64,000 nucleotides of DNA, taken from the IMG/VR virus record IMGVR_UViG_3300045988_087130, positions 25,785-89,784 of that record; one strand, 5' to 3'. Each line of letters begins with the position of its first letter. Position 1 is the stretch's first letter. Below, one piece after another: positions 2,918-63,520 of this stretch. Position numbers and translations under genes: made by a program. The DNA is from a virus. The notes beneath the pieces are model-generated. The model had not been told where the DNA came from and ran no database searches. It was given only the letters and a program-made list of their open reading frames with translations.

Positions 2918-3208
2918 ATGGATTTAGGAAAGGCGATTAAGACAATTAGGGTAAGCAAAGGCTTGACCCAACGACAACTGAGTAAGGCTATCGGTTGTAG
3001 CGAGACAAACATGTTGTTTATGGAGACCGGAAGAACGTTTCCACGCAAGAGTAAGATTGATGCAATATGCAAGGTATTGGAGATTCCGATGTCTTATTTG
3101 TTGATGTTTGCTATTACACAGGATGATATTCCGGAAGATAAGCAGAGTTTGTACACAAGCATCGTTGAACCGATGCGAAATGAATTTATTAGGGAGTTAC
3201 TGCGATGA
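2918..3208 (+). CDS. XRE-family helix-turn-helix DNA-binding protein
   Basis: N-terminal LTQRQLSKAIGCSETNMLFMETG matches HTH_3 (Cro/CI-type) pattern. Confidence 0.6.
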   Translation: MDLGKAIKTIRVSKGLTQRQLSKAIGCSETNMLFMETGRTFPRKSKIDAICKVLEIPMSYLLMFAITQDDIPEDKQSLYTSIVEPMRNEFIRELLR

Positions 3209-25778: not shown

Positions 25779-25805
25779 GGTGAGGCACACCCGAACAACT
25801 GCACA
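25779..25805 (+). promoter_or_regulatory. GGTGAGGCACACC..AACAACTGCAC element
   Basis: Exact motif 10 nt after the 25768 stop. Confidence 0.4.
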
Positions 25806-34888: not shown

Positions 34889-34961
34889 GCTGCATTAGAC
34901 AAGTGGTTAAGTCGCCAGTTTTTCACGCTGGTATTCAAAGGTTCGAATCCTTTATGCAGTA
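34889..34961 (+). tRNA. tRNA-Glu (anticodon TTC)
   Basis: Hand-folded: acceptor GCTGCAT/ATGCAGT, anticodon stem CCAGT/GCTGG with loop TTTTCAC, T-arm AAAGG-TTCGAAT-CCTTT. Confidence 0.6.
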
Positions 34962-34967
34962 CAAATT

Positions 34968-35038
34968 TGCCCTATGGTGTAATGGCAACACTACAGGTTT
35001 TGGTTCTGTCATTAGTGGTTCGAATCCGCTTGGGGCAA
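34968..35038 (+). tRNA. tRNA-Gln (anticodon TTG)
   Basis: Acceptor TGCCCTA/TGGGGCA, anticodon stem ACAGG/TCTGT with loop TTTTGGT, T-loop TTCGAAT. Confidence 0.55.
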
Positions 35039-35069
35039 CAAGGTGATATTTGATATGTATTCCACAAAT

Positions 35070-35154
35070 GGTGCAATATTCAAGCGGCTAAAGAAGACTG
35101 ACTGTAAATCAGTTCCCATTGCGGGTTCGGTGAGTTCGAATCTCTCTTGCACCA
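35070..35154 (+). tRNA. tRNA-Tyr (anticodon GTA), type II with long variable arm
   Basis: Acceptor GGTGCAA/TTGCACC; D-loop AGCGGCTAAA; anticodon loop CTGTAAA; variable arm CCC-ATTGC-GGG; T-loop TTCGAAT; 85 nt. Confidence 0.65.
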
Positions 35155-35178
35155 CAAGAGTAACTTTGTCAGATTACG

Positions 35179-35250
35179 GGGAATGTAGCTCAGAAGTAGA
35201 GCACTTGGTTCGTAACCAAGGGGGCATTGGTGCAACTCCAATCATTCCTT
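35179..35250 (+). tRNA. tRNA-Thr (anticodon CGT)
   Basis: Acceptor GGGAATG/CATTCCT, D-arm GCTC-AGAAGTA-GAGC, anticodon stem CTTGG/CCAAG with loop TTCGTAA; unusual T-loop TGCAACT. Confidence 0.5.
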
Positions 35251-35253
35251 TAC

Positions 35254-35325
35254 GCTTTCGTAGCTCAGTGGCAGAGCATAGGATTTTTAATCCTAGGGTC
35301 GAAGGTTCGAATCCTTCCGTTGGCA
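35254..35325 (+). tRNA. tRNA-Lys (anticodon TTT)
   Basis: D-arm TAGCTCAGTGGCAGAGC, anticodon stem TAGGA/TCCTA with loop TTTTTAA, T-arm GAAGG-TTCGAAT-CCTTC; acceptor stem has two internal mismatches, so ends are uncertain. Confidence 0.5.
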
Positions 35326-35498
35326 CAATGATACACAAGAAGAGAGCCGTGATGTTTGTTCTGTTGGAATCTCGGACATCTGTCAACGGATAACGTAGGA
35401 AGCAGATGGGGCGAATAAAGTTGTGAATAAGCTTATGAACTAGGGAAGCAAGCGGAATGGCCTCTTTTTTGTGCTTCATTTGATGGTTTAACGAAAAA

Positions 35499-45295: not shown

Positions 45296-46029
45296 TAACA
45301 GCAAGTATGAATTCGGGTGAGATGCGTAGGGTACGAAACTTAGATGAAGCTAGAATCTATGAGTTTCAGATGCGAAAAGCTAATGAGCTTAAACGTGAAA
45401 TGAGAAAGCAGAGTGTAAGACAGATAACCAAGACATACGAATTGGTTACACGGAATGCCGATTATTTCATCGTTGTAGGTGTAAAGCATGGAGGTGTCTT
45501 TGTCTCAGGTGTATTCATTTATCTGAAGGAAACTAACGAGTATATTCCTATGAGCAGAAATGAGGGGTATAGCGAGGATTGTTTTGCTATGAGCGTTCAT
45601 TTTCTGAAGAGATATGCAGAAAGGTATTTGAAAAAGGATTTGCCGATAGCAAAGATATTACAAAAGATATATACATCGTTTACAGGTGCGGTTCAGCTTT
45701 ATAGTGACGACAAGACAAAAAGGGTGGTGTTTGCTATTCCGGAAGGGCTTATACTCACAGAATACGAGCAAGAAAAGCGTATCATCCACTACAAAACCTT
45801 TGTAAGCATGGATATGCTAAAGAAGACACAAATGCAAAGTTACGAGAAGATTAGTGCATTTCTAATGGAATCATGTCAGCAAATAGCTATGGCAAGAGAA
45901 GCAGGAAATGACGAAAAGCTGGGCGTTGTGTACAGAAGGTTTTATGATGATATTGATTTGATAGATACAAAGGAGGCGCAAGCCATATATTCAAGTTTCT
46001 TCGAAAAAGGAGGTAACAATGAAAGATAA
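45286..46029 (+). CDS. hypothetical protein overlapping the C5-MTase stop (candidate restriction partner, unproven)
   Basis: 247-aa ORF starting 10 nt inside the MTase gene end; no recognisable motif. Confidence 0.4.
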   Translation: MRMITASMNSGEMRRVRNLDEARIYEFQMRKANELKREMRKQSVRQITKTYELVTRNADYFIVVGVKHGGVFVSGVFIYLKETNEYIPMSRNEGYSEDCFAMSVHFLKRYAERYLKKDLPIAKILQKIYTSFTGAVQLYSDDKTKRVVFAIPEGLILTEYEQEKRIIHYKTFVSMDMLKKTQMQSYEKISAFLMESCQQIAMAREAGNDEKLGVVYRRFYDDIDLIDTKEAQAIYSSFFEKGGNNER

Positions 46030-46522
46030 ATGTATAACAAGGTTTCTAGGTGATATTAAGCCTATAGAGAATTACGAAAGGTATTATGTTAGCAAGCTGG
46101 GACATGTCTTTACTATTGGGAGAACGTCTCAATTAAAGGAAATCGCACCTTGCAAGACACCAAAAGGTTATTTGAAGGTATGGCTTTACAAGAACGGAAA
46201 GCGAAAGATGTTCTATGTTCATCGTTTGGTAGCGCAGGCATTCTTGGAGAATCCAGATGCGTTGCCGATGGTGAATCATAAGGATTTCGACAAGACGAAT
46301 AACGATGTAGATAACTTGGAGTATTGTACCGCAAGATACAATGTGATTTATTCTGCTATAGCAAAGAAAACCTCTTCCGAATACTTGGGTGTGACTTGGA
46401 ATAAGAGTGTAAGAAAATGGCAAGCTCAGTACCAGGTAGGTAAGAAGAAAACTTATATCGGATGCTTTGGTACGCAAGAAGAGGCTCACGAAGCTTATGT
46501 TAACGCTATAAAAGAGATTTGA
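46019..46522 (+). CDS. HNH homing endonuclease (HNH_3) with AP2 DNA-binding domain
   Basis: VNHKDFDKTNNDVDNLEY (H-x-D...NN...NLE HNH_3 core) and YLGVTWNKSVRKWQAQYQVGKKKTYIGCFGTQEEAHEAY (AP2). Confidence 0.65.
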   Translation: MKDKCITRFLGDIKPIENYERYYVSKLGHVFTIGRTSQLKEIAPCKTPKGYLKVWLYKNGKRKMFYVHRLVAQAFLENPDALPMVNHKDFDKTNNDVDNLEYCTARYNVIYSAIAKKTSSEYLGVTWNKSVRKWQAQYQVGKKKTYIGCFGTQEEAHEAYVNAIKEI

Positions 46523-46523
46523 C

Positions 46524-47237
46524 ATGCTTAAATTTGATAGAATATACAATTCCGACTGTATAGAAGGAATGAAGCAAATAGGGAGTGGGGATGTCAATTT
46601 AATTGTTACTGACCCACCATATTGTATCTCCTATAAGACCGGATGGAGAGCAGACGACCATCGTTTTTCGAAGGAAATACTCAATGACGATAATGAGCAA
46701 TTGATTATTGATTATATGAGCGAATGCTACCGGATATTGAAGGATGATAGTGCCGCTTACGTCTTTTGTTCAGCTAAGACCTTGGACTTTTTTATGCAAC
46801 AAGCTAGGAACGCAGGGTTTACCATTAAGAATGTGCTCATTTGGCGAAAGAACAACCATACGGCTGGAGATTTAGAGGCGCAATATGGGCAATGTTACGA
46901 GCCAATCCTGTACTTGAATAAAGGCAGACGAACCATAAACGGAAAGCGTTTGGAGGACGTATGGGACTTTGATAGAGTTCCATCTGATAAATTGGTACAT
47001 CAGAATGAGAAACCAATTCCCTTGCTTATGCAATGCATCTTGAAATCATCGGACGAAGGAGATTTGGTATTTGATGGTTTTATGGGTTCAGCAAGTACTG
47101 CTCTGGCTTGTATGCGTACAAACAGGAATTTCCTTGGCTTTGAGTTAGACGGGGAATATTTCAAGGTAGCACAAAAAAGAATCAAAGAAGAAATGTTTAA
47201 TCAAAAAGATATGTTTGGATATGCTGGAGATAGATAA
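46524..47237 (+). CDS. beta-class N6-adenine/N4-cytosine DNA methyltransferase
   Basis: N-terminal catalytic TDPPY, C-terminal SAM site FDGFMGSASTALAC. Confidence 0.75.
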   Translation: MLKFDRIYNSDCIEGMKQIGSGDVNLIVTDPPYCISYKTGWRADDHRFSKEILNDDNEQLIIDYMSECYRILKDDSAAYVFCSAKTLDFFMQQARNAGFTIKNVLIWRKNNHTAGDLEAQYGQCYEPILYLNKGRRTINGKRLEDVWDFDRVPSDKLVHQNEKPIPLLMQCILKSSDEGDLVFDGFMGSASTALACMRTNRNFLGFELDGEYFKVAQKRIKEEMFNQKDMFGYAGDR

Positions 47238-47967
47238 GATTTATCAAGTTGATTGTCTGGATGGTATGAGCAAGATTGATGACAAGTCCGTCTCGCTTAT
47301 ACTCACAGACCCTCCATATGAAATTTCAAGGGATTCCAATTATGCAAAGTCCGCTCCTACTGGTAAAGATACTGATAGATTCCGCATATCTATCGACTTT
47401 GGAGACTGGGATAAACAGGAAGCATTTGATATAGGCTCTATGATAAAAGAATCCTACAGGTGCTTGAAAGATGGTGGATATATAGTTTGTTTCTATGATT
47501 TGTGGAAGATTGGGGTCGTAAAGGATGCGATGATTAATGTCGGATTTAAACAAATTAGATTTATAGAATGGATAAAAACAAATCCTGTTCCAATAAATAG
47601 TAAGACAAACTATCTCACAAACGCAAGAGAGGTCGCTGTGTGTGGGGTGAAAGGTAAAAATCCTATCTTTAAAAGCGAATATGACAATGGAGTATATAGC
47701 TTTCCAATCTGTCGTGATAAGGGGAGATTTCATCCTACCCAGAAGCCTGTTAGTCTTTTCAGAAGCATTATAAACAAGCATTCCTGCAAAGGAGATATTG
47801 TACTAGATTGCTGTATAGGTAGTGGAACTACGGCTATTGCGTGTATTCAAGAAAATCGTAATTTTATTGGTTTTGAAACTAATAGAGAGTTTTACGACAA
47901 AGCAAACGAGAGAATAGAAAATGAATTAATGATAAAGCAAGATAGTTTATTTAGTAATGAAAGTTAG
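47215..47967 (+). CDS. beta-class N6-adenine/N4-cytosine DNA methyltransferase
   Basis: TDPPY motif; C-terminal LDCCIGSGTTAIAC. Confidence 0.75.
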   Translation: MDMLEIDKIYQVDCLDGMSKIDDKSVSLILTDPPYEISRDSNYAKSAPTGKDTDRFRISIDFGDWDKQEAFDIGSMIKESYRCLKDGGYIVCFYDLWKIGVVKDAMINVGFKQIRFIEWIKTNPVPINSKTNYLTNAREVAVCGVKGKNPIFKSEYDNGVYSFPICRDKGRFHPTQKPVSLFRSIINKHSCKGDIVLDCCIGSGTTAIACIQENRNFIGFETNREFYDKANERIENELMIKQDSLFSNES

Positions 47968-50588: not shown

Positions 50589-50975
50589 ATGAAAAAAGAA
50601 GATAGACTTAAAATATATCGCAAATACGATGGGCATTGTGCTTATTGCGGCAAGAGTATAGAGTATAAGGATATGCAGGTTGACCATCTTGTTCCGAAGA
50701 ATCGAGGTTGTTACTCTCGGTGGAGCGACAAGGAGGGAAGGTTTGTCGTTTTTCATGGCGATGACTGTATGGAGAACTATATGCCATCTTGCAGGTCTTG
50801 TAATCTTCGTAAGCGTGATATGAGTTTGGAACAATTTCGCTCAGAGATTACTAGACAGGCTAAAGGATTGCTTAATGGTAAGGCTTCTTTCCAAGTAAAG
50901 ATGTCGCTCGCTTATGGCTTAATAGAAGAGCACTTTGATAAACAAATTGAGTTCTATTTTGAGAAATTTAAATAG
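50589..50975 (+). CDS. HNH endonuclease (paralog of 63110-63520)
   Basis: CAYCG...DHLVPKNRG...CRSCNLRKRD HNH zinc-finger core; about 60% identical to 63110-63520. Confidence 0.6.
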   Translation: MKKEDRLKIYRKYDGHCAYCGKSIEYKDMQVDHLVPKNRGCYSRWSDKEGRFVVFHGDDCMENYMPSCRSCNLRKRDMSLEQFRSEITRQAKGLLNGKASFQVKMSLAYGLIEEHFDKQIEFYFEKFK

Positions 50976-60239: not shown

Positions 60240-61442
60240 ATGAATGAGTTTACAAAGGTCTTTGCAAAGACAATAGAAGATGAAGCTATCAAGCAGATAG
60301 AAGTTCTATCCAATAGCGATGCTTACTCTGGTTGTGAAATAAGAATAATGCCAGATTGTCACGCAGGTAAAGGCTGTACTATTGGCACGGTGATAGAGCT
60401 GGACAAAAGAGTAGTTCCTAACACCGTAGGAGTAGATATAGGTTGCGGAATGAAAGTCGTTAGACTTGGTAAAGTTAATATTAATCTACAGAAATTTGAC
60501 GAAGCAGTCAATACGTTGATTCCGTCTGGTTTTAATATCAACGAAGAAGCTTCTGCATACATACATGGATTAGTTGACGGCAATATGTTTGGTAAATTTC
60601 GTTCTTGGGATAGTATTAATGGGATGGATATAGTATATCGTTCTGTTGGTTCTCTTGGCGGTGGCAATCACTTTATTGAGTTAGATGCAAATGAAGAAGG
60701 AGAGAAGTTTCTTGTGATACATACAGGAAGTAGAAACCTTGGTGTTAGGGTATGCAACTATTACCAAAAACTTGCCTACGAGTATTGTCGTAAGAAAATA
60801 GCAGATAAGTCTGAGGTTATTGCCAAGTTGAAAAGCGAAGGAAGAGAAAAGGAAATACAGAGTGCTATAAAGTTGTTAGGTACTAGAGATATTAGCAAGG
60901 AACTTTCTTACTTGGAGGGCGATTTGCTTGATGATTACTTAAATGATATGCGTATAGTTCAGAAGTATGCCGAGCATAATAGAAGAATTATAGCTAACAG
61001 ACTCGTCAATGCTCTAGGTGTGGATATTGACCCAAATTCAGACAAGCATTCTTTTACAACTATTCACAACTATATAGATACAGACAAGGGCATATTGCGA
61101 AAAGGAGCTATCAGTGCAAAGAAAGACGAGATTGTCATTATTCCTATGAATATGCGTGACGGTTCTCTTATCTGTAAAGGTAAAGGAAACAAGGAATGGT
61201 TATGCTCAGCCCCACATGGCGCAGGTAGATTAATGTCTCGTACACAGGCAAAGAAAGAGTTATCTATGGATTCTTACAAGAATGAAATGAATGGTATCTA
61301 TTCCACATCAGTTTGTGAAGAAACCATTGATGAAGCACCTATGGCATACAAACCAACCGAAGAGATTGTTGAGCTAATAAAACCTACGGTTGATGTGATA
61401 GATGTTATTAAACCAATTTACAACTTTAAAGCAAAATTATAA
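60240..61442 (+). CDS. rtcB: RtcB-family RNA ligase (short form)
   Basis: RtcB hallmarks MPDCHAGKG, VGVDIGCGM, GGGNHFIEL, HNYID, SAPHGAGR all present. Confidence 0.75.
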   Translation: MNEFTKVFAKTIEDEAIKQIEVLSNSDAYSGCEIRIMPDCHAGKGCTIGTVIELDKRVVPNTVGVDIGCGMKVVRLGKVNINLQKFDEAVNTLIPSGFNINEEASAYIHGLVDGNMFGKFRSWDSINGMDIVYRSVGSLGGGNHFIELDANEEGEKFLVIHTGSRNLGVRVCNYYQKLAYEYCRKKIADKSEVIAKLKSEGREKEIQSAIKLLGTRDISKELSYLEGDLLDDYLNDMRIVQKYAEHNRRIIANRLVNALGVDIDPNSDKHSFTTIHNYIDTDKGILRKGAISAKKDEIVIIPMNMRDGSLICKGKGNKEWLCSAPHGAGRLMSRTQAKKELSMDSYKNEMNGIYSTSVCEETIDEAPMAYKPTEEIVELIKPTVDVIDVIKPIYNFKAKL

Positions 61443-61645
61443 TGAGCAAGGAAACATTTGACTTCTCGGAGGCTCTGAGAAGAATGAAGGAAGGGAAGAA
61501 AGTGAGAAGGGTAATTTGGGAAGAATGTGGAGCTTATATCCATATTGTCTCTGAGACTATTGTGGCTGTATGCGATGGGCAATTCTTTCCTTGTGTTTTC
61601 AAAGATTCTGAGGATATACTTGCAACAGACTGGGAGGAGGTGTAA
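61442..61645 (+). CDS. hypothetical protein
   Basis: 67-aa ORF. Confidence 0.35.
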   Translation: MSKETFDFSEALRRMKEGKKVRRVIWEECGAYIHIVSETIVAVCDGQFFPCVFKDSEDILATDWEEV

Positions 61646-61647
61646 GG

Positions 61648-61713
61648 ATGAAAAAGAAAGTATTGACCCTCACCGTCAGCAAGCAGTGGTTCGACATGAT
61701 AGTAGTATTATGA
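61648..61713 (+). pseudogene. 21-codon 5' fragment duplicating the start of ASCH-like gene 62362
   Basis: MKKKVLTLTVSKQWFDMIVVL* against MKKILTLTVNKEWFSRILLGEK... at 62362; the HNH gene lies between them. Confidence 0.4.
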
Positions 61714-62360
61714 TAAAAGGAACAGAAGTAAATATCATACAAGGTGAAATTTGGAAGCCCATAAAAGGTTACGAAGGTTTATATTTTATTAGTAATCTTA
61801 GCAGGGTGAAAAGGATTACACCCAGAGGTAAGTTTAAGGAACGTTTATTGTACAAGAGACAAAATGATGCAGGTTATTGGTGCGTGTCACTTTGTAAGAA
61901 CGGAAAAGCAAAATGTAAGCGTGTACATAGATTGGTTGCTGAAGCGTTTATTCCTAATCCCGAGAATAAAACACAAGTTGGGCATAAAGACGAGACTCGG
62001 ACTAATGATTCTATCGAAAACTTAGAATGGGTAACTCCGAAAGAAAATTGCAATATGCCGTTACATAAACTGCGTATTGCTAACTCACAAACTGGGAAAA
62101 AGGATAGTTTGGAAACTAAACTAAAGAAACGCAATGCACAATTGGGAGAAAAAAGTCATTTATACGGCAAGAGGGGTAAAGATAATAGGTTTTCTAAACC
62201 CATATTGCAATACAATAAAAATGGCGAACTAATGAAGGAATACGAAAATGCTGAAGAAGCGTATAGAATTACGGGAATAGCAAGTTCGCATATCAGAGAA
62301 TGTTGCAACGGTTTAAGAAAAACCTCTGGTGGATATTGTTGGAAATTTAAAAATAAATAA
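61710..62360 (+). CDS. HNH homing endonuclease (NUMOD4 + HNH_3)
   Basis: IKGYEGLYFISNLSRVKRI (NUMOD4) and VGHKDETRTNDSIENLEWVTPKEN (HNH_3); the long track ORF 61527 begins upstream, but ATG 61710 follows the fragment stop. Confidence 0.65.
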   Translation: MIKGTEVNIIQGEIWKPIKGYEGLYFISNLSRVKRITPRGKFKERLLYKRQNDAGYWCVSLCKNGKAKCKRVHRLVAEAFIPNPENKTQVGHKDETRTNDSIENLEWVTPKENCNMPLHKLRIANSQTGKKDSLETKLKKRNAQLGEKSHLYGKRGKDNRFSKPILQYNKNGELMKEYENAEEAYRITGIASSHIRECCNGLRKTSGGYCWKFKNK

Positions 62361-62361
62361 A

Positions 62362-62733
62362 ATGAAGAAGATTTTAACACTTACAGTAAACAAAGAATGG
62401 TTTTCTCGTATTTTGCTGGGTGAAAAGACGGAAGAGTATCGTGAGATTAAGCCGTATTGGGTAGCACGATTGTTTCAAAACAATAGCAATATTGTTGATG
62501 TGCAATATTTAGCTTCAGGTTTAGTAGGGCGCACGGATTTGCTTAAAGGCTATATTGACGCACAGAGAATTGTGTTAAAACAATATACCCACGTCCTCTT
62601 CATCAATGGCTACCGCAAGGATAGCCCACGAATTGAGAAGGAGATTGAGAGTATTACCATCGGCAAGCCTAAGAAAGGCTTATGCCCCGACAAGTGGCTT
62701 GATACTGAGTTTTTTATCATTAAATTTAAGTGA
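62362..62733 (+). CDS. ASCH-like domain protein
   Basis: LTLTVNKEWFSRILLGEKTEEYREIKPYW resembles the ASCH N-terminal signature. Confidence 0.45.
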   Translation: MKKILTLTVNKEWFSRILLGEKTEEYREIKPYWVARLFQNNSNIVDVQYLASGLVGRTDLLKGYIDAQRIVLKQYTHVLFINGYRKDSPRIEKEIESITIGKPKKGLCPDKWLDTEFFIIKFK

Positions 62734-63109: not shown

Positions 63110-63520
63110 ATGAAGAAGGAAGATAGAATCAAAGTTTGGGAGAAATACGACCATCATTGCGCATACTGTGGAAGAGAAATAAAACTCGAAGATATGCAAA
63201 TCGACCATTTCATTCCAAAGAATCGTGGAAACTATTCACGTTGGAGTGATAAAGAAGGTAAGTATATCGTTTCTCATGGTGAGGATAGTATGGAGAATTA
63301 TATGCCTTCTTGCCGAGCTTGTAACTTTCGAAAGCGAGATATGAGTATAGGTCAATTCCGTGAAGCTATCAAGGAACAGGCGAAAGGTTTGCTTAAAGGT
63401 GCTGCAAAGTTTCAGGTAAGCATGAGTATCGCTTATGGTCTGCTCAACCCTGCTTTTGACAAGCCTATAGTATTCTATTTTGAGAAGTTTAAAAAGAATG
63501 ATAAAAAGTACAACAAATGA
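63110..63520 (+). CDS. HNH endonuclease (paralog of 50589-50975)
   Basis: CAYCG...DHFIPKNRG...CRACNFRKRD HNH core. Confidence 0.6.
   Translation: MKKEDRIKVWEKYDHHCAYCGREIKLEDMQIDHFIPKNRGNYSRWSDKEGKYIVSHGEDSMENYMPSCRACNFRKRDMSIGQFREAIKEQAKGLLKGAAKFQVSMSIAYGLLNPAFDKPIVFYFEKFKKNDKKYNK

Follow-up and report, generated by a model that had tools for sequence, protein, structure and literature searches.

Known systems and the locus under study

Two routes are known by which a homing endonuclease gene can reside inside an open reading frame (ORF) without destroying the gene, namely self-splicing elements and gene splitting. The locus described here, whose element brings a recoded substitute for the gene start, provides population-level sequence evidence of a third. 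It lies in a 64,000-nucleotide stretch of viral DNA, positions 25,785 to 89,784 of IMG/VR record IMGVR_UViG_3300045988_087130 (the whole stretch is called the window below, and coordinates refer to it unless they follow the handle of another locus). On the plus strand it consists of a short stub ORF, a gene for an HNH homing endonuclease and a gene for an ASCH-like protein. We consider it probable that a free-standing I-HmuI-type HNH gene has inserted into the ASCH-like gene of this Segatella/Prevotella phage together with a recoded gene start, the cutting itself being presumed.

The architecture is closest to that of the fungal mitochondrial 'gene hybrids' created by mORFs, which are known from atp6 of Allomyces macrogynus and from atp6, atp9, cox2 and nad3 of Glomus sp. 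(PMC3630166). There, an endonuclease ORF within a host gene brings a foreign terminal segment that completes the gene, and the native terminus survives as an unexpressed remnant. The remnant DNA is 91-98% identical to relatives versus 64-81% to the inserted copy, with mostly synonymous differences (PMC3630166). The numerical identity pattern is the same in the window: a foreign terminal copy, in this case an N-terminal one, completes the gene, and the remnant (our stub) is closer to the gene start of relatives lacking the HNH gene (about 91% in DNA, 84-100% in protein) than to the inserted copy (61% in protein). The two systems differ in that mORFs replace the C-terminus, leave the remnant downstream, encode LAGLIDADG or GIY-YIG enzymes and live in mitochondria (PMC3630166), whereas in the window the N-terminus is replaced, the remnant precedes the endonuclease ORF and is coupled to it, the endonuclease is of the HNH type, the host is a temperate Bacteroidota phage and the foreign part is trimmed to 57 nucleotides (nt). 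Since it is the N-terminus that is replaced here, the element needs a start codon of its own. As far as sequence comparison goes, the element in the window is the N-terminal mirror image of a mORF gene hybrid.

Homing by free-standing endonuclease genes is well documented in phages, T4-like ones among others (PMC2988022, PMC2790892, PMC12724721). The 'intronless homing' of T4 SegF and MobE resembles our case in that the endonuclease genes are free-standing and sporadic, breaks are repaired with co-conversion of the flanks, and the target lies in a conserved neighbour (PMC2988022, PMC2790892). However, these genes are intergenic and have variable co-converted flanks, while the window element is located within an ORF and has a fixed minimal recoded replacement of 57 nt. 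I-HmuI and I-HmuII of the Bacillus phages SPO1 and SP82 (PDB 1U3E) share with our enzyme an N-terminal NUMOD4-type module, the HNH_3 domain and a C-terminal helix-turn-helix (HTH), but their genes reside in group I introns of the DNA polymerase gene, which is restored by splicing; here it is a recoded segment that restores the gene. Finally, engineered HomeR home-and-rescue gene drives combine a nuclease and a recoded, cleavage-resistant rescue in one cassette (PMC7968924). They are synthetic, use Cas9 and act in a diploid animal (PMC7968924), and their resemblance to our case is functional only. In the literature searched, no phage precedent of N-terminal replacement was found, which does not prove its absence.

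Anatomy of the locus and the endonuclease

The stub ORF (61648..61713) encodes MKKKVLTLTVSKQWFDMIVVL and is composed of native ASCH-like codons 1-19 (61648-61704), followed by GTA TTA and the stop codon TGA (61711-61713), which overlaps the ATG of the HNH gene at 61710. The HNH gene (61710..62360) is an intact ORF of 216 amino acids (aa). A single nucleotide (62361) separates its stop from the ATG of the ASCH-like gene (62362..62733), which is intact as well and encodes a 123-aa product starting with MKKILTLTVNKEWFSRILLGEKTEEYR. Two parts can be distinguished in the ASCH-like gene: an imported recoded substitute for native codons 1-19/20 (MKKILTLTVNKEWFSRILL, 62362..62418), and a resident part running from a GxKxxExR-type motif (GEKTEEYR) through the stop codon (62419..62733). 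An earlier sequence-only reading of this DNA had given the same coordinates and ORF layout, and all of them hold. When the N-terminus of the ASCH-like protein was compared with the window in six frames, the stub was the sole match (11 of 18 residues identical, tblastn E 2e-4 to 5e-3), the next-best matches having E > 1; taken alone, this similarity is modest. A DNA repeat finder did not pair the stub with the recoded start, the two being too diverged at the DNA level, and their similarity is therefore mainly one of protein sequence. The GC content is 32% in the recoded segment versus 42% in the stub.

The HNH product matched the Pfam families NUMOD4 (E 3.8e-13) and HNH_3 (E 1.4e-9) above threshold, confirming the domains originally assigned to it, while NUMOD1 (at the C-terminal HTH) and I-HmuI_NUMOD-like matches scored under their cut-offs. 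It aligned with the characterised homing nickase I-HmuI (PDB 1U3E) at E 2.7e-15, including the conserved residues of the HNH motif. The intact ORF thus combines an HNH (beta-beta-alpha-metal) motif with NUMOD-type DNA-binding modules, and its sequence makes the enzyme a typical I-HmuI-like HNH protein.

As I-HmuI is itself intron-encoded, the HNH gene might be thought to reside in a group I intron or an intein, with the stub and the downstream gene as spliced exons. We rejected this explanation and regard its probability as negligible. An Rfam search at E <= 1 detected no intron around the HNH gene, the lone match being a spurious snoRNA, and no ribozyme core that would flank the ORF and join exons was seen. 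The space left for one is just 8 to 13 nt upstream and 1 nt downstream of the HNH gene. Moreover, the HNH gene has its own start and stop, and the ASCH-like neighbour has its own ATG and a complete N-terminus, so that splicing would duplicate the first strand and helix (beta1-alpha1) of the protein. The HNH gene is thus free-standing.

The stub is native and the gene start is imported

For comparison, 80 IMG/VR loci with the ASCH-like gene were collected, together with loci from JGI metagenomes, ENA, Logan and GTDB genomes. A 17-mer scan of metagenome contigs added little, as the pattern was too short: about eight loci were relevant, and most of the listed matches were chance hits from unrelated environments.

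The ASCH-like gene of relatives lacking the HNH gene directly follows a Tad2-like gene at a distance of 2-5 nt, a gene order common to L094, L104, L122 and others. In the GenBank gut phage MT835597 (L001), which is HNH-less, the gene is single and uninterrupted; its start is 91% identical to window positions 61645-61700, i.e. to the stub, and its end is 91% identical to 62587-62731. The stub equals the corresponding part of L104 in 18 of 18 aa and by inspection is near-identical to L094, L104 and L122. When the cassette was removed in silico, the window became colinear across the junction with L104 and L094 (91%, about 580 nt) and with L122 (87%, 750 nt). The resident gene start in HNH-less loci reads M(K/E)KK(V/I)LTLTVSKQWFDMI and is nearly invariant in DNA (TTGACCCTCACCGTCAGCAAGCARTGGTTCGAYATGATWG). 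In every locus with this HNH gene, by contrast with the resident type, the intact gene has the recoded start TTAACACTTACAGTAAACAAAGAATGGTTTTCTCGTATTTT (NKEWFSRIL), and a resident-type stub ending at codon 19/20 was present in 13 of the 14 HNH-positive loci that have upstream sequence. The cassette occurs sporadically among close relatives, and always at one fixed site: the identical codon in at least 13 contigs of different backbones.

The linkage between the recoded start and the HNH gene is complete. Among 95 distinct gene starts, 76 were of the resident type without HNH and 15 were recoded with HNH directly upstream, while resident-type full genes with HNH directly upstream numbered zero (Fisher 3.5e-14, to be read with the caution that metagenomic contigs are non-independent samples). 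The remaining four were recoded-type starts without HNH, of which three belong to the hybrids described below and one to a locus truncated at its end. The exact 23-mer of the recoded start was confined to HNH-positive contigs in IMG/VR, and four further proteins with NKEWFSRIL all had the HNH gene and the stub upstream. IMG/VR contigs, 1940 close homologues and 150 family representatives yielded no lineage that has the full NKEWFSRIL start but no HNH gene.

About 17 of 45 aligned nt differ between the recoded copy and the resident consensus. By inspection, seven conserved degenerate codons were switched, all to A/T-ending synonyms, the resident codons having frequencies of 0.8-0.9 at these positions. 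Further changes are S to N, Q to E and DM to SR. From GGT GAA AAG on, nothing sets the gene apart from resident sequence. The helix motif of the family representatives is WFDMI throughout, WFSRIL being limited to HNH-linked alleles. Judging from these alignments, the stub is what the ASCH-like gene originally began with, barely changed; the intact gene is chimeric, with 19 recoded codons in front of the resident rest.

The sequence-only reading had described the upstream fragment as a diverged duplicate of the start of the downstream gene. The duplication is real, but its polarity is the reverse of what was proposed, since the stub is native and it is the first 19 codons of the intact gene that were imported. 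That reading had further expected a single uninterrupted gene in HNH-less relatives, and this is what the 76 resident-type starts represent; relatives without HNH that carry both the stub and the full gene, which would have spoken against it, were encountered at no locus.

The same observations bear on another possible origin of the two similar N-terminal coding segments in tandem, namely that the gene start was duplicated in situ, the copies diverged and the HNH gene inserted between them later. HNH-less genomes contain no such duplication. Furthermore, the stub is nearly unchanged and the functional copy is synonymously saturated, which is the opposite of a decaying duplicate, and the divergence ends abruptly at codon 20. 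The in-situ duplication is therefore contradicted both by the HNH-less loci and by the reversed decay pattern; we rejected it as highly improbable.

Movement, decay and loss of the cassette

The extent of the mobile unit was delimited by comparison with a contig from Logan SRR29134260 (L169), which is identical to the window over 722 nt (0 mismatches, 61702-62423). This interval (61702..62423) is the largest extent of the cassette and includes a linker, the HNH gene and the recoded N-terminal codons. Mismatches restart at 61701 on the left and at 62424 on the right. Outside the cassette the two sequences diverge: 5 of 54 stub positions differ, identity is 88% over the remainder of the gene, and the DNA further out on either side is unrelated. 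The same was observed in four other pairs (L087/L203, L087/L241, L002/L284 and L203/L294), where the HNH gene has 0-5 mismatches in 650 nt and the recoded 60 nt have none, while the stubs diverge by 7-21% and the remaining parts of the gene by 13-40%. The HNH gene of L002 is 98% identical but is set in a paralogous 131-aa ASCH allele that is only 60% identical. A near-identical element in divergent backgrounds, with sharp boundaries, indicates horizontal movement of the cassette.

The homing interpretation of the original reading is thus supported by the empty sites, by the identical insertion codon in at least 13 contigs and by cassettes up to 100% identical across unrelated contigs. One part of it has to be amended, however. 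The duplication had been taken for a repair footprint, but it represents the standing architecture of the element and not a scar made anew in each event.

It could be objected that the cassette is passive cargo, spread by ordinary short-homology recombination in a hypervariable region, with the HNH enzyme idle or directed at another target. The genes flanking the locus are indeed highly mosaic, and small genes unrelated to endonucleases that lie beside the ASCH-like gene (in L001 and L082) also have boundary duplications. Nevertheless, several independent pairs have their exchange boundaries no more than a few nt from the ends of the cassette, and a single insertion codon is used in at least 13 contigs. 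The duplicate carried by the cassette is strongly recoded, as opposed to the near-identical repeats at the insertions without endonuclease, and the recoded start is completely linked to an HNH gene whose family is a known homing family. We therefore deem passive spread quite unlikely.

The loci also differ in the state of the endonuclease gene. It is intact in the window and in L169, L002, L087, L186, L203, L241 and L294-L297. A 7-nt deletion in L083 and a 5' truncation with a frameshift in L255 have left it decayed, and in L284 (1222-2246) a frameshift makes HNH residues 1-204 read through into the ASCH-like gene. In L165 (5500-6204), the HNH gene is fused to a long-form ASCH leader MERLTKVMDKYLKKAVADY, the stub having been deleted at a microhomology. 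Finally, HNH-less hybrid alleles were found in L166 (3040-3120), L167 and L168 (both 3020-3100). They are of the resident type on the left up to AGCAAG and then recoded (GAATGGTTTTCTCGTATYTTATC), the halves being joined in GAATGGTT, so that the right half reads SKEWFSRIL. The hybrid allele appears to be common, because one of its protein clusters has 94 members. Such hybrids match the expected outcome of recombination between diverged direct repeats or of endonuclease-free repair. Empty, occupied, decayed and lost-with-altered-site stages of the homing cycle would thus coexist in a single gene family of human-gut Segatella/Prevotella phages, which makes this family a good natural system for the study of homing endonuclease gene dynamics.

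Matches in bacterial genomes, all of them HNH-less, came from Segatella copri (including an isolate chromosome), Prevotella merdae and Leyella stercorea. The presence of copies in these genomes indicates a temperate phage group of gut Prevotellaceae.

Proposed mechanism of homing

We propose the following model. The element lies between codon 19/20 and the codons of the GxKxxExR motif, relies on no intron or intein, and supplies at its 3' end a start codon and a recoded copy of the 19-20 displaced codons. With its own start codon and the recoded copy in place, a full-length ASCH-like protein would still be made. In a cell harbouring both HNH-positive and HNH-less genomes, the enzyme would nick or cut the conserved target sequence ...TGGTTCGAYATGATWGYN|GGYGARAAG... 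in the HNH-less allele, around codon 20. The HNH-positive genome would then serve as template for repair, its stub and the DNA before it acting as left arm and its ASCH-like gene from codon 21 on as right arm, and the linker, the HNH gene and the recoded segment would be copied. According to the model, the recoded copy travels as cargo, and the stub provides the left homology arm and probably also a coupling leader for the HNH gene. HNH-positive genomes contain no contiguous target: the stub stops short of its right half, and in the recoded copy the left half is changed. With the target restored in neither copy, the element would be immune to itself. Recoding would be needed because an unrecoded replacement would rebuild the target beside the right half-site.

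The sequences show the anatomy, the sporadic distribution, the linkage of the recoded start to the HNH gene, the horizontal movement and the decayed and lost states, and the model presumes the cleavage specificity, the position of the cut and the resistance conferred by recoding. Provided that the HNH-less hybrids resist cutting, specificity would map to nt 40-60 of the gene. Together with the sharp exchange boundaries, the hybrids lead to a testable prediction of a recognition region of about 20 bp for an uncharacterised I-HmuI-like enzyme.

A rival to this model assumes that homing is real but the recoding non-adaptive, i.e. that the 19 codons are a leftover of a divergent donor after trimming by co-conversion and that the cut site possibly lies elsewhere in or near the gene. 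All synonymous changes go toward A/T, which is the compositional bias of the phage itself, and an insertion in a gene of the metallo-beta-lactamase fold (see below) has a whole foreign gene of 69% identity, resembling an untrimmed stage. On the other hand, the full NKEWFSRIL start turned up in no HNH-less lineage among the IMG/VR contigs, the 1940 homologues or the 150 representatives. The S-R pair substitutes for the family-wide D-M, and recombination has left codons 1-19 joined to the HNH gene in every case but has split off all that follows codon 20. For these reasons we consider the non-adaptive origin improbable, though not to be neglected.

Several points weigh against the proposed homing with a recoded, cleavage-resistant start. 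That the HNH enzyme cuts the 5' end of the HNH-less allele is something we infer. The HNH-less hybrids, which we treated as products of HNH loss, could instead be ancestors. The left junction exists in three forms (A, B and the stub-less one of L165), which would fit several events as well as later indels. The boundary duplications around genes other than endonucleases imply that recombination can produce duplications at this place without a homing endonuclease. Last, the 5' block of the ASCH-like gene is no more conserved than its 3' block, so conservation alone marks no target. We had also considered that synonymous sites might be conserved in the target alone, and dropped this argument for that reason, the two blocks being about equally conserved.

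The ASCH-like target gene

The signature motif of ASCH domains is GxKxxExR. In the target it is represented by G20-E-K22-T-E-E25-Y-R27, of which K22, E24, E25, Y26 and R27 were invariant in 18 alleles. The Pfam ASCH profile (PF04266) gave weak matches in 9 of the 18 alleles, the best reaching 16.7-19.2 bits, below the cut-off of 21.2, and PDB profile searches with the ASCH-like protein returned nothing relevant. The gene encodes an ASCH/PUA-like beta-barrel fold according to structure prediction; an AlphaFold run with a shallow alignment was unusable (pLDDT 47.5), and a run with a diverse alignment worked and was the source of the secondary structure.

The swapped segment (62362-62418) corresponds to beta1 and alpha1 of the predicted ASCH-like fold, and the insertion point directly precedes the GxKxxExR-type motif GEKTEEYR, which is invariant in the aligned alleles. 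Since beta1 and alpha1 are displaced by the insertion, a replacement is needed for function.

The ASCH-like gene as a whole has two conserved blocks, of about 35 codons at the 5' end and about 50 codons at the 3' end, and a hypervariable, indel-rich middle (window 62470-62590). Alleles are 104-146 aa long, some of them having the N-terminal extension MERLTKVMDKYL. Two ASCH-like paralogues are present in one locus in L109, L110 and L112.

Other I-HmuI-like endonuclease genes

Among 79 loci with other I-HmuI-like HNH genes, a search for protein sequences duplicated to the left and right of the endonuclease gene brought up two cases (L030 and L059). In L030 (3865-5153 of IMGVR_UViG_3300008130_000094), which comes from an unrelated phage family, the order is a 42-aa N-terminal stub from a gene of the metallo-beta-lactamase fold, an HNH gene whose product is 39% identical to that of the cassette in the window, and the full gene. 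Among its relatives (L306-L385), 77 of 80 are HNH-less and have a single gene with the stub-type start. In the three HNH-positive loci of this family, the stub is present and the downstream gene is a foreign allele of 69% identity throughout. This family looks like an untrimmed stage of the process that shaped the locus in the window.

It is conceivable, though somewhat short of probable in our estimate, that free-standing phage endonucleases of the I-HmuI type have a general, previously undescribed, intron- and intein-free way of invading genes by a recoded, self-immune N-terminal replacement ('home-and-rescue'), in which the native start is recycled as left arm and translational leader. The element in the window, its rescue trimmed to 57 nt, would then be the minimal form, and L030, with a whole foreign allele, would stand for an early one. 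For annotation, short 'orphan' ORFs which lie upstream of HNH genes and echo the start of the next gene may be read as markers of insertion sites. Chimeric gene starts of this kind can also mislead phylogenies.

The second case, L059 (3930-4631 of IMGVR_UViG_3300045988_155784), is a C-terminal version. A 209-aa gene ends with QSNPYVFVYEFNLIK and is followed by an I-HmuI-like HNH gene, and the remnant QSNPFVFVYEFKLID overlaps the 3' end of the HNH gene in another frame.

Neighbouring genes and further observations

Upstream of the stub, a gene for RtcB RNA ligase is followed by the Tad2-like (anti-Thoeris) gene (window 60240-61645). The latter occupies 61442..61645 on the plus strand (Pfam PF11195, E 1.7e-10), and its alleles in relatives are 44-97% identical, with conserved ends and a replaced middle. 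A scan for promoters and terminators was uninformative, as it used E. coli consensus sequences and the phage is one of Bacteroidota.

Small accessory genes are inserted between the ASCH-like gene and the next gene in L001 (5150-5455, 75 aa) and L082 (4355-4575, 56 aa, Cys-rich). They are flanked by near-identical boundary copies (A/G)TT(T/C)AAG(T/G)GATATGAA, with no endonuclease involved, and the copies in L001, L131 and L148 include the last approximately 20 ASCH codons. Further away, 1-2 kb downstream of the locus, a phage integrase gene and bacterial cstA were observed in L296 (3335-5192) and in L302 (chromosome of Segatella copri N016-9).

The window contains additional endonuclease genes. 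A second HNH gene, unrelated and small (PF01844, 136 aa), is located at 63110-63520 between two 123-aa genes. Relatives lack it or have it in one of three places, namely behind the first of the 123-aa genes, immediately downstream of the ASCH-like gene or ahead of RtcB, and a paralogue of 69.5% identity occurs in the window at 50589-50972. A third endonuclease gene (NUMOD4/HNH_3, 46019-46522) is 43% identical to the HNH of the cassette. It adjoins two downstream genes of 237 aa (46524-47237) and 250 aa (47215-47967), which are DNA methyltransferase-like by sequence inspection alone. Five clustered tRNA genes (Glu, Gln, Tyr, Thr and Lys) are present at 34889-35326.

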